Virus record (IMG/VR): IMGVR_UViG_3300029922_000040
Origin: a virus
Taxonomy: Duplodnaviria; Heunggongvirae; Uroviricota; Caudoviricetes
DNA length: 64,000 nt
Strand: one strand, 5' to 3'
Shown one piece after another: positions 21,024-22,351 of the stretch. Each line of letters opens with the position of its first letter. Position 1 is the first letter of the stretch. The translations under genes and the position numbers were made by a program. Under the pieces are notes generated by a model. The model saw only the letters and a list, made by a program, of their open reading frames with translations. It ran no database searches and was not told the DNA's origin.

Positions 21024-22181
21024 GTGCTACAGGTAGAGCGTCATCATCACAAAGGCAATGAGCAAATCGTTGCCCTCTGCAAGACCAGCAAGGAGTTGTA
21101 CAACAAATGCAACTTCCTAATGCGTCAGGCATGGTTCGGTGGCATGGCTCTACCCAACATCAACGACCTTGTTACTGCCATGCACAATGAGGAGTGCTTC
21201 AAGAGCCTGCATAACACCAAGACTGCCAAGCAGACCATCAGGAAGGTCTTGACTGACTGGAGCAATTTCAAGGCGGCACTGCGAGCGTGGAAAACCGATC
21301 CATCGTTCAAGAAGCCGAAACCGCCCTATTACAAGAAGGAACTGGCACAGGTCATCTTCTACAACGAAACGATCTTAGGCGGTCAAAGTGGCAAGGATTT
21401 GACTGAGATCGTGCCAACGAATAAGTGTTTCGCTGTGCCGAGTACGAGAAAGTTCAAACAGGTGGTCATCACGCCGAAAACTTTCGGGTTTATGATTGAT
21501 GTGCAGTATGAAGTGCCAACACCACAAAAAGGAAATGCCGAAGGAGTTTGCTGTATAGACATTGGATTGAATACTTTGGCTGCGATAACTTCCGACCAAC
21601 ACTCGCCGTTATTGGTCAATGGTCGCATCGTCAAGAGTATCAATCAGTGGTACAACAAGCATCCGAACAAGAAGACCAGCCGGAAGAGGTATTTCAGGTT
21701 GGAGAACTACTTCCACCACGTTTCCAAGATGATCGTCGCCAATTGTGTCAAGCATGGTATCGGCAAGATCATCATTGGCAAGAACGACGGCTGGAAGTCA
21801 GGGATGAACTTGGGGAAGAAGACCAATCAGAACTTTCAGAGCGTGCCGTTTTGGAAGTTGATGCAGAAGATCAGCTACAAGGCTGAACTGGCAGGCATTG
21901 AGGTTGTTTTCACTGAGGAATCTTATACCAGCAAGGCAAGTTTTCTTGACCGTGACCCATTGCCGCAGTACGAGAAGGGCGTGAGCCACACGTTCTCTGG
22001 CAGTCGGGTAAAGCGTGGTTTGTACAGGTCGGCTGATGGTCGTGAGATCAATGCCGATGTGAATGGGTCTGCCAACATTGGCAGGAAAGTAATCAGGGAC
22101 GAGGAGATGATCCTCCGACTTGATAGGAGCGTTGCCGCAACGCCAGTGCGAGTCAATCCATTGAAGTTCTTCTGCGTGTAA
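21024..22181 (+). CDS. tnpB: TnpB-like RuvC-fold protein (IS200/IS605 OrfB family); RuvC-II Glu apparently replaced by Asn, and no Zn-finger cysteines
   Basis: RuvC-I is CIDIGLNTLAAITSD. RuvC-III is INADVNGSANIGRK. At the RuvC-II position, IIIGKNDGW aligns to ISDra2 EIIGTEHL. The CxxC..CxxC segment is absent. GTG 21024 with an aaggagac SD is preferred over TTG 20973. Confidence 0.7.
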   Translation: MLQVERHHHKGNEQIVALCKTSKELYNKCNFLMRQAWFGGMALPNINDLVTAMHNEECFKSLHNTKTAKQTIRKVLTDWSNFKAALRAWKTDPSFKKPKPPYYKKELAQVIFYNETILGGQSGKDLTEIVPTNKCFAVPSTRKFKQVVITPKTFGFMIDVQYEVPTPQKGNAEGVCCIDIGLNTLAAITSDQHSPLLVNGRIVKSINQWYNKHPNKKTSRKRYFRLENYFHHVSKMIVANCVKHGIGKIIIGKNDGWKSGMNLGKKTNQNFQSVPFWKLMQKISYKAELAGIEVVFTEESYTSKASFLDRDPLPQYEKGVSHTFSGSRVKRGLYRSADGREINADVNGSANIGRKVIRDEEMILRLDRSVAATPVRVNPLKFFCV

Positions 22182-22307
22182 CGGCAGGGGATCGGGTTGA
22201 TTTTGCCAAACTTTGTGTCTTGGGTAAGTTTTTCCAAGTTTCAAGGAACGGTTGATTCCGAGATAGCCGACCGCTAAATCCGAGATAGACGCCTGTTTTG
22301 CACAATT

Positions 22308-22351
22308 ATTTCGACAAAAACTAGCTAAACCCATGTAACCTTCGGTATACT
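22308..22351 (+). promoter_or_regulatory. conserved phage promoter copy 5
   Basis: TAGCTA 22322-22327, 18 nt, TATACT 22346-22351. Confidence 0.5.

Follow-up and report, generated by a model that had tools for sequence, protein, structure and literature searches.

We analyzed a window of 64,000 nucleotides (nt; 64 kb) from a virus of the Caudoviricetes (IMG/VR record IMGVR_UViG_3300029922_000040), focusing on its tnpB gene. The locus is probably a non-autonomous, tnpA-deleted TnpB/omega-RNA element of the IS607 family, inserted at a phage gene's stop codon. Its TnpB belongs to a clade that has an alternative RuvC-II glutamate (Ealt) and no zinc finger. By analogy, the element presumably acts as an RNA-guided homing or retention nuclease through the Ealt triad. 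The kind of element is already known (Ealt, or rearranged, IS607-family TnpBs), and this copy is a new member of the zinc-finger-less subclade. A first-pass annotation, made from the sequence alone, had instead put forward a nuclease-attenuated, TldR-like regulator; as detailed below, that proposal fails on the loss of catalytic residues, on missing transposon ends and on a conserved partner gene.

Counted from the first TTG, the open reading frame (ORF) that ends with a stop codon at 22181 on the + strand has 402 residues. More than 100 homologues of 385–386 residues, beginning with MLxVERH, cover 96% of this longest ORF, and we therefore assigned the start to the GTG at 21024. The GTG is preceded, seven bases ahead, by the Shine-Dalgarno sequence AAGGAG (21011–21016, + strand). 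So defined, tnpB (21024–22181, + strand) is an intact ORF of 385 residues. Its product matches the NCBIfam profile guided_TnpB with an E-value of 7.6e-40 (137 bits; cutoff 100), as well as Pfam Cas12f1-like_TNB, Pfam OrfB_IS605 and PHROG 506 ('transposase'). We also built an AlphaFold2 model from 31 homologues (mean predicted local distance difference test score, pLDDT, 81). The best PDB matches of the model, found with Foldseek, were AsCas12f, ISFba1 TnpB, ISDra2 TnpB and mimivirus Fanzor2 (TM-score about 0.6), and E-values for the Cas12f, TnpB and Fanzor2 matches ranged from 1e-11 to 1e-15. Both profile and structure matches thus identify a TnpB fold with a split RuvC domain, in agreement with the first-pass annotation.

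Conservation was assessed in an alignment of 133 sequences: the window TnpB and 132 full-length representatives of clusters formed at 50% identity within a library of 1.84 billion proteins. RuvC-I (CIDIGLN) and RuvC-III (INADVNGSANI) were found intact, as originally annotated, and their aspartates, D179 (21558–21560) and D345 (22056–22058), are each present in 133/133 sequences. The RuvC-II strand had been annotated as an E-to-N substitution within IIIGKNDGW. This string is present and the canonical Glu is indeed missing, but the canonical position is better assigned to G252 (21777–21779; 133/133) than to N254 (21783–21785; 126/133). The change would then be 'E-to-G', with N254 as a clade-specific neighbor. 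In the AlphaFold model, G252 is the last residue of strand 246–252, and an ungapped comparison of GIGKIIIG with GCGTIQME of AsCas12f puts the catalytic Glu of Cas12f opposite G252. The gapped HMMER alignment puts the same Glu opposite D255 instead. Whichever alignment is used, no acidic residue is conserved at TnpB positions 252–255 among the 133 sequences (D255 itself occurs in 21/133). The neighboring W257 and K258 are present in 123/133 and 132/133, respectively.

A profile alignment to TnpB/Cas12f therefore leaves the claim of a missing canonical Glu standing; what had been overlooked is the conserved pair E298–E299 (21915–21920), of which E298 is found in 112/133 sequences and E299 in 132/133. 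In the AlphaFold model, the pair comes directly after strand 293–297. E299 follows G252 by 47 residues and sits two residues ahead of YTS and seven ahead of the first zinc-finger Cys position, which is now S306 (E299-S-Y-T-S-K-A-S306, i.e. E-x6-[C to S]). 'Ealt', as defined by Yoon et al. (2023; PMC10711439), is a Glu that precedes the first zinc-finger Cys by six residues. The window TnpB has just this combination of a non-acidic canonical position (G252) and a downstream Glu six residues before the first-Cys position (E299). From the position of E299, its invariance and homology, we infer that it completes a D-E-D triad with D179 and D345.

Rearranged sites of this kind have been described before. 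Altae-Tran et al. (2023) reported large clades of TnpBs that have Gly instead of the RuvC-II Glu, with another Glu compensating, as in RuvX. In all Fanzors and a subset of TnpBs, Jiang et al. (2023) identified a conserved Glu at an alternative position about 45 residues downstream; the E467A substitution in ApmFanzor (ApmFanzor2) abolishes cleavage, and TvTnpB, which has a rearranged site, cleaves DNA. In the cryo-EM structure of Fanzor2 the triad is D324/E467/D501, with the Glu shifted by 50 residues; our PDB sequence search did not return Fanzor2 for a residue-level alignment. RuvC-I of the window TnpB reads D-I-G (D-phi-G), and the protein therefore falls in the Ealt/D-phi-G group, not in the DPG 'pro-Fanzor' group. 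The DPG motif of pro-Fanzors and Fanzor2 is absent from RuvC-I of the window TnpB and occurs in 3/150 best representatives.

The segment between RuvC-II and RuvC-III reads SKASFLDRDPLPQYEKGVSHTFSGSRVKRGLY and has no CxxC..CxxC, which bears out the earlier statement that the protein lacks a zinc finger. Moreover, the pattern E-x6-CxxC..CxxC was found in 0/150 best representatives, that is, the C4 zinc finger between Ealt and RuvC-III is absent from them as well. In the place where CxxC..CxxC would be stands a conserved F/Y-S-G-x-R-x-x-R-G-L-F/Y motif. Its first Arg, R328 (133/133), lies within the zinc-less TNB segment (residues 306–340; 21939–22043) and is aligned to the SGNR Arg of AsCas12f, which we take to be the active-site Arg R383. 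In addition, G-x-N-x-x-W-K follows strand beta-4 in 127/150 best representatives. On the aligned sequences, the absence of the zinc finger is a property of the whole deep clade, which departs from canonical TnpBs in the Glu-to-Gly replacement (G252), in Ealt E299 and in the loss of the four Zn-binding cysteines with Arg R328 kept. The clade, marked by G-x-N-x-x-W-K after beta-4, EE-S-YTSK and S-G-x-R-x-x-R-G, comprises hundreds of clusters at 50% identity. Loss of zinc fingers in some large TnpB branches was reported by Altae-Tran et al. (2023). Because the pattern with which Yoon et al. (PMC10711439) searched for Ealt required CxxC, it would miss the zinc-finger-less clade.

The disappearance of both the canonical RuvC-II Glu and the zinc finger is what had pointed to a TldR-like domesticated TnpB, i.e. 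a nuclease-dead RNA-guided repressor whose guide is aimed at a phage or host promoter. Such a repressor would also fit a phage-borne gene without tnpA in the window, located at one fixed site in six contigs and followed by a phage promoter-like motif 89 nt downstream of the element. However, the conservation of D179, D345 and E299 speaks against a dead nuclease, since the Ealt arrangement is active in tested proteins. The protein is also full length, with 385 residues like its close relatives (385–386), and displays no C-terminal truncation. Further evidence against a TldR comes from the transposon ends and the guide.

Both transposon ends could be delineated. The left end (LE; about 20948–21020, + strand) begins with GGGTTGAG and is about 95–97% identical to the LE of two siblings, L003 and L004, whose proteins are 87% identical to the window TnpB. 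Positions 21020 to 22252/3 match these siblings at about 83% nucleotide identity, and the 75-bp block 20946/7–21020, 95–97% identical, is located in them about 0.9–1.2 kb farther upstream. The intervening DNA of L003 and L004, between LE and tnpB, encodes a serine recombinase with MerR-HTH and Resolvase domains (in L003 there are also one or two small ORFs), which is an IS607-type TnpA. The same type of TnpA adjoins tnpB in L002, in L099/L100 and in many genomic relatives that are 35–40% identical. Ktedonobacter robiniae has five copies (L064, L065, L070, L072 and L073), each with a serine-recombinase TnpA upstream, a sign that the wider clade has IS607 elements that are mobile at present. These five loci are near-identical tblastn matches, with 37–38% amino acid identity and the same locus positions. 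In the window copy, the Shine-Dalgarno sequence of the LE is joined directly to the tnpB start, and the transposase module has therefore been deleted. Judged by these comparisons, the window copy is a tnpA-less derivative of an IS607-type element. Most other tnpA-less relatives (L005, L088, L090, L092, L097, L098, L102 and others) have a longer LE of about 130 nt, which holds a conserved ...ACCC(T/C)...TATATAA(A/G)GT just before the tnpB ATG; the window-type 75-nt LE does not have it.

The details of both junctions conform to IS607 as well. According to the rules worked out for IS607/ISXfa1 (PMC10711439), crossover takes place at GG at both ends, the transposon-adjacent motif (TAM) is GGG, and a fixed right-flank nucleotide lies within the scaffold of the reRNA (omega-RNA); other IS607 TnpBs use G-rich TAMs (AGGAG, GAGGG). 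In the window, the left junction is TAM-like, with A at 20947 followed by GGG (+ strand), and across 23 loci this junction reads [A16/G4/T3]-GGGT. The right end (RE) terminates in AACGGT (22247–22252, + strand), which includes the GG crossover dinucleotide and the fixed right-flank T. AACGGT is invariant in about 31 independent loci, and unrelated DNA begins straight after it. A 17-nt subterminal repeat in the LE, GAAACTTGGAAAAAGTT (20968–20984, + strand), forms an inverted repeat, 94% complementary, with AAGTTTTTCCAAGTTTC in the RE (22226–22242, + strand); relatives have AAATCTAnnnnAAATCTA in their LE and TAGATTTnnnnTAGATTT in their RE as the equivalent repeats. TnpA is presumed to bind at these sites. 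The element thus has GG at both junctions, a fixed right-flank nucleotide and subterminal repeats common to LE and RE. The first-pass annotation had named TnpA and IS ends of an ordinary active IS605-family element as evidence that would speak against its regulator. Much of this evidence is present: both ends are there and the siblings have TnpA, of the IS607 serine recombinase type and not IS605 Y1. Intact ends, together with siblings that are IS607 copies with TnpA, also count against a TldR.

The omega-RNA scaffold maps to 22086–22252 (+ strand), of which 96 nt are the end of tnpB and 71 nt lie beyond it, and its 3′ end is the invariant AACGGT, i.e. the transposon boundary. Its structure was derived from a seed of 10 relatives, which included neither the window nor its three closest siblings; RNAalifold predicted 45 pairs for this seed, 20 of them with compensatory changes. 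A run of RNAalifold on a raw 32-sequence MAFFT alignment had yielded only 2 helices, owing to misalignment of the variable stems, and was replaced by the 10-sequence seed and a covariance model (R1) built from it. When the 64 kb window was searched with R1, the single match was 22086–22252 on the + strand, full length, with 135 bits and an E-value of 7e-33. Run on the window plus 85 related loci (86 sources), R1 found 42 matches. In the alignment of these matches, which is fitted to the model, 93.3% of cells are paired compared to 69.4% after shuffling, and double changes occur in 34/45 pairs. Covariation scores 0.546 versus 0.170 for shuffled alignments (0/500 shuffles reach 0.546) and at most 0.14 with slid partners. 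The minimum free energy fold of the window sequence has the same five helices. These are, on the + strand, P1 (22092–97 paired with 22119–24, with an inner stem 22101–05/22111–15), P2 (22129–34/22138–43, within the coding region), P3 (22150–59/22194–203), which encloses P4 (22168–75/22184–91, with the tnpB stop codon in its loop), and P5 (22211–15/22242–46). No Rfam family, RAGATH-18 included, matched 22086–22252 at E ≤1.

The overlap of scaffold and gene leaves a trace in the protein. The P2 hairpin (22129–22143) overlaps residues 369–374, and its compensatory changes (GCGTTG/CAACGC, GCCTTG/CAAGGC and GCATTG/CAATGC) are accompanied by co-variation of two amino acids (RSVAATP, RSLAARP and RSIAAMP). 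Here the structure of the RNA clearly constrains the sequence of the TnpB protein.

The predicted guide, TGATTCCGAGATAGCCGACC (22253–22272, + strand; starting TGATTCCGAGATAGCC...), is phage flank. We placed its start at 22253 because the scaffold ends at 22252 and by analogy with IS607 TnpBs, and assumed a length of 20 nt from ISFba1. The guide contains the first copy of TCCGAGATAG, a 10-mer that had been noticed twice downstream of the gene and taken as part of a repeat-containing tail that could encode a guide RNA. Both exact copies exist (22257–22266 and 22279–22288), and an RNA gene does lie at the 3′ side of tnpB, but the repeats are located in the right flank, outside the element, and belong to flank and guide rather than to the scaffold. 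The guide sequence is different at every locus compared, being simply the adjacent flank, like that of a homing TnpB. This, too, disagrees with a TldR, as does the variation of neighboring genes among relatives, which leaves no conserved partner gene. Taken together, we regard a TldR-like repressor as very improbable.

Within the window, the guide matches its own site and, partially, sites with 3 mismatches. A 12-mer of the guide, TCCGAGATAGCC, recurs exactly at 19599–19610 (− strand) in an AAA+/ClpB-like gene; the four TAM-proximal bases are unmatched there, so this is not an expected target, and the recurrence may be due to chance. The two TCCGAGATAG copies are part of an imperfect 22-nt tandem repeat, ACGGTTGATTCCGAGATAGCCG (22248–22269) and ACCGCTAAATCCGAGATAGACG (22270–22291), 77% identical. 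The first copy consists of the RE tip and the predicted guide; the second, degenerate and holding the second TCCGAGATAG, is outside the element. In the syntenic phage L168, nothing corresponds to this stretch of about 55 nt. The tandem repeat might be an insertion or homing scar.

Could the locus be an inert relic, a stranded, non-functional transposon fragment tolerated in an intergenic spot? No transposase was found in the window, the covariance model detected a single copy there, and insertion at a gene end left the upstream protein unchanged, all of which would suit a relic. Nonetheless, the ORF is intact; compared with L004, the sibling about 83% identical at the nucleotide level, dS is 0.84, dN 0.094 and dN/dS 0.11. 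Only this value was used; naive dN/dS estimates against L001–L003 are invalid because of a 3-nt indel and were discarded. Every clade-invariant residue is retained, the omega-RNA has all of its helices and a score of 135 bits, and both ends are preserved along with their subterminal repeats. A relic is therefore unlikely.

The insertion site itself could be reconstructed. The stop codon (20952–20954) of the upstream gene, which encodes a membrane-like protein of 140 residues (20532–20954), falls within the LE. Most of the 18 aligned homologues of this protein end in ..G(V/I)KG*, like the window protein, and insertion at AAGGGT|TGA left the protein unchanged. The reconstructed empty-site junction is ...GGAATCAAGGGT|TGATTCCGAG..., in which the upstream gene's native stop codon is formed by the first three bases of the guide (from 22253). 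Another register, ...AAGG|TTGA, giving the C-terminus KVDSEIADR*, had been considered first and was rejected, as homologues ending in KG* fit ...AAGGGT|TGA. Related phages without the element do exist: L167–L170 and L176 have the AAA+ gene and a homologue of the upstream gene without tnpB, and L168 is syntenic through the next gene, of 96 residues.

With these pieces in place, a mechanism can be proposed. tnpB would be transcribed along with neighboring + strand phage genes, and the 3′ part of the transcript (22086–22252) would fold as the scaffold, carrying about 16–20 nt of right flank from 22253 as the guide. The ribonucleoprotein would then cut guide-matching DNA beside a G-rich TAM (approximately A-GGG-T), which is to say the empty site in phages without the element, and recombinational repair would copy the element back (homing or retention). 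The occupied site would be spared because the right end reads AACGGT and not the TAM. Movement to new sites would depend on a serine-recombinase TnpA supplied in trans, for which the retained GG termini and subterminal repeats would be the substrate. With somewhat less than even confidence, we further suggest that the zinc-finger-less Ealt clade as a whole may consist of compact active RNA-guided nucleases without a Zn-ribbon, which in this phage would serve homing or competition between related large phages.

Several observations weigh against this account of a homing element. To our knowledge, no member of the zinc-finger-less Ealt clade has experimentally shown activity. In the AlphaFold model, the loops 256–269 and 302–309 beside the active site have pLDDT below 50. 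The absence of tnpA, noted at the outset by the first-pass annotation, was confirmed, as tblastn with sibling TnpA found none in the 64 kb window. The exact reconstructed empty site (GGAATCAAGG[N]TTGATTCCGAGATAG) had 0 matches in viral contigs. A looser 19-mer, GGTTGATTCCGAGATAGCC, gave one match, in an unrelated coding region of L180 and after TTTGGT rather than GGGT, which by a rough estimate is about chance level; closer relatives of the upstream gene (P0298 and P0275) had no exact empty site either. Finally, five further contigs, taken from different samples, have the element at the same position with identical coding sequence, and the 99% identical L001 has it there as well; L001 and L171–L175 are from peat and bog samples. 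Fixed at one site in all six contigs, the element may be immobile and retained for another reason.

Another reading is exaptation by the phage, with the nuclease serving as a weapon against related phages lacking the insertion during superinfection or co-infection, to the benefit of the phage and not only of the element. The identical coding sequence at the same fixed site in contigs from several samples, the empty sites in related phages, and the location of the closest full-length siblings, which sit on a viral contig from IMG/VR (L004; 134 kb) or on other large contigs of metagenomes (L002; 84 kb), would all agree with this. On the available data, however, exaptation is mechanistically indistinguishable from selfish homing, and an empty site matching the guide was searched for and none was found. 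We assign it a very small probability and continue to favor the tnpA-deleted IS607 element described above.

The flanks of the element have some palindromic features. Positions 20928–20952 and 22247–22271 form inverted repeats of 25 nt, 76% complementary, and the reconstructed empty site makes a perfect hairpin, GGAATCAA-GGG-TTGATTCC, with the insertion point, at the upstream gene's stop codon, in its center. Insertion sites are not generally palindromic (mean 4.6 versus 3.7 matches of 12): the window and L005 stand out, whereas 16 other loci do not. Farther downstream, the stretch ends at a promoter copy, as annotated: the promoter-like TTCGGTATACTA is located at 22341–22352, 89 nt past the element. 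This motif has 6 + strand copies within one mismatch (3855, 6327, 22341, 22700, 23075 and 42151), versus 0.15 expected. Where checked (22341, 22700 and 23075), it stands upstream of ORFs, and a diverged form is also present at the equivalent place in the related phage contigs L168, L169 and L176.

As for the phage itself, the window contains phage-type genes such as an HNH endonuclease fused to an RNA ligase (14599–15639), a tRNA nucleotidyltransferase (28622–29896), a helicase and a PARP-like protein (23472–24977). No tRNA genes were found in the window. A blastn search of 18.5–26 kb against 50,697 phage records returned only a weak match of the PARP-like gene to the Xanthomonas jumbo phage XacN1, and the window therefore has no close reference phage. 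Homologues of the upstream gene (P0280, P0293 and P0297) sit on contigs of 413–435 kb, and the window may therefore derive from a phage related to very large (jumbo) ones.

The locus carries a practical lesson: when a TnpB appears to have a dead RuvC-II, a relocated Glu should be looked for before a regulator is named. It also documents a large clade in which a relocated Glu is paired with total loss of the zinc-finger cysteines, and represents a clean case of an IS607-type TnpB element, minus the transposase, in an environmental phage whose relatives have empty sites. The omega-RNA model, the tentative TAM (A-GGG-T) and the guide boundary make the predicted nuclease of 385 residues directly testable.

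Among known systems, the closest are the Ealt TnpBs, also described as having 'rearranged RuvC-II' (TnpB2/RIIr), and mimivirus Fanzor2 (PMC10530073, PMC10691335, PMC10711439, PMC11832414). Like Ealt TnpBs such as TvTnpB of Thermoplasma volcanium, and like Fanzor2, the window TnpB has Gly in place of Glu at RuvC-II, a conserved Glu about 45–50 residues downstream (two ahead of YTS and seven ahead of the first zinc-finger position) and a NADxN RuvC-III motif; with Fanzor2 it also shares the IS607 association and a G-rich TAM. Unlike Fanzor2, which keeps the zinc finger, the window clade lacks all four Zn-binding cysteines, and the window TnpB has no N-terminal extension. Its D-I-G in RuvC-I sets it apart from Fanzors and pro-Fanzors (DPG), and G-x-N-x-x-W-K after beta-4 distinguishes its clade from both Ealt TnpBs and Fanzor2.

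In its ends and RNA, the element resembles the IS607 elements ISXfa1 (PMC10711439) and ISFba1 (RAGATH-18 reRNA; PMC11061315): siblings have a serine-recombinase TnpA, GG is present at both junctions, a fixed right-flank nucleotide ends the scaffold, and the reRNA overlaps the 3′ end of tnpB. Its A-GGG is similar to the GGG of ISXfa1 and to the GAGGG class of ISFba1 relatives. Unlike both, the window copy is without tnpA; unlike ISFba1, which has a canonical Glu (D194/E290/D371), its TnpB has a relocated one, and its omega-RNA is not matched by the RAGATH-18 Rfam model. TldRs (10.1101/2023.11.30.569447) are likewise TnpB-derived and phage-borne, with the canonical RuvC-II Glu missing and no adjacent transposase; the window TnpB differs from them in a predicted triad kept through Ealt, a full-length protein, transposon ends, a flank-derived guide and no conserved partner gene. 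Lastly, stand-alone tnpB elements of the IS1341 type and palindrome-associated transposable elements (PATEs) also consist of tnpB and ends without a transposase, and are presumably mobilized in trans or kept by homing, but the ends of the window element are of the IS607 (serine recombinase) type and not of the IS200/IS605 Y1 hairpin type.

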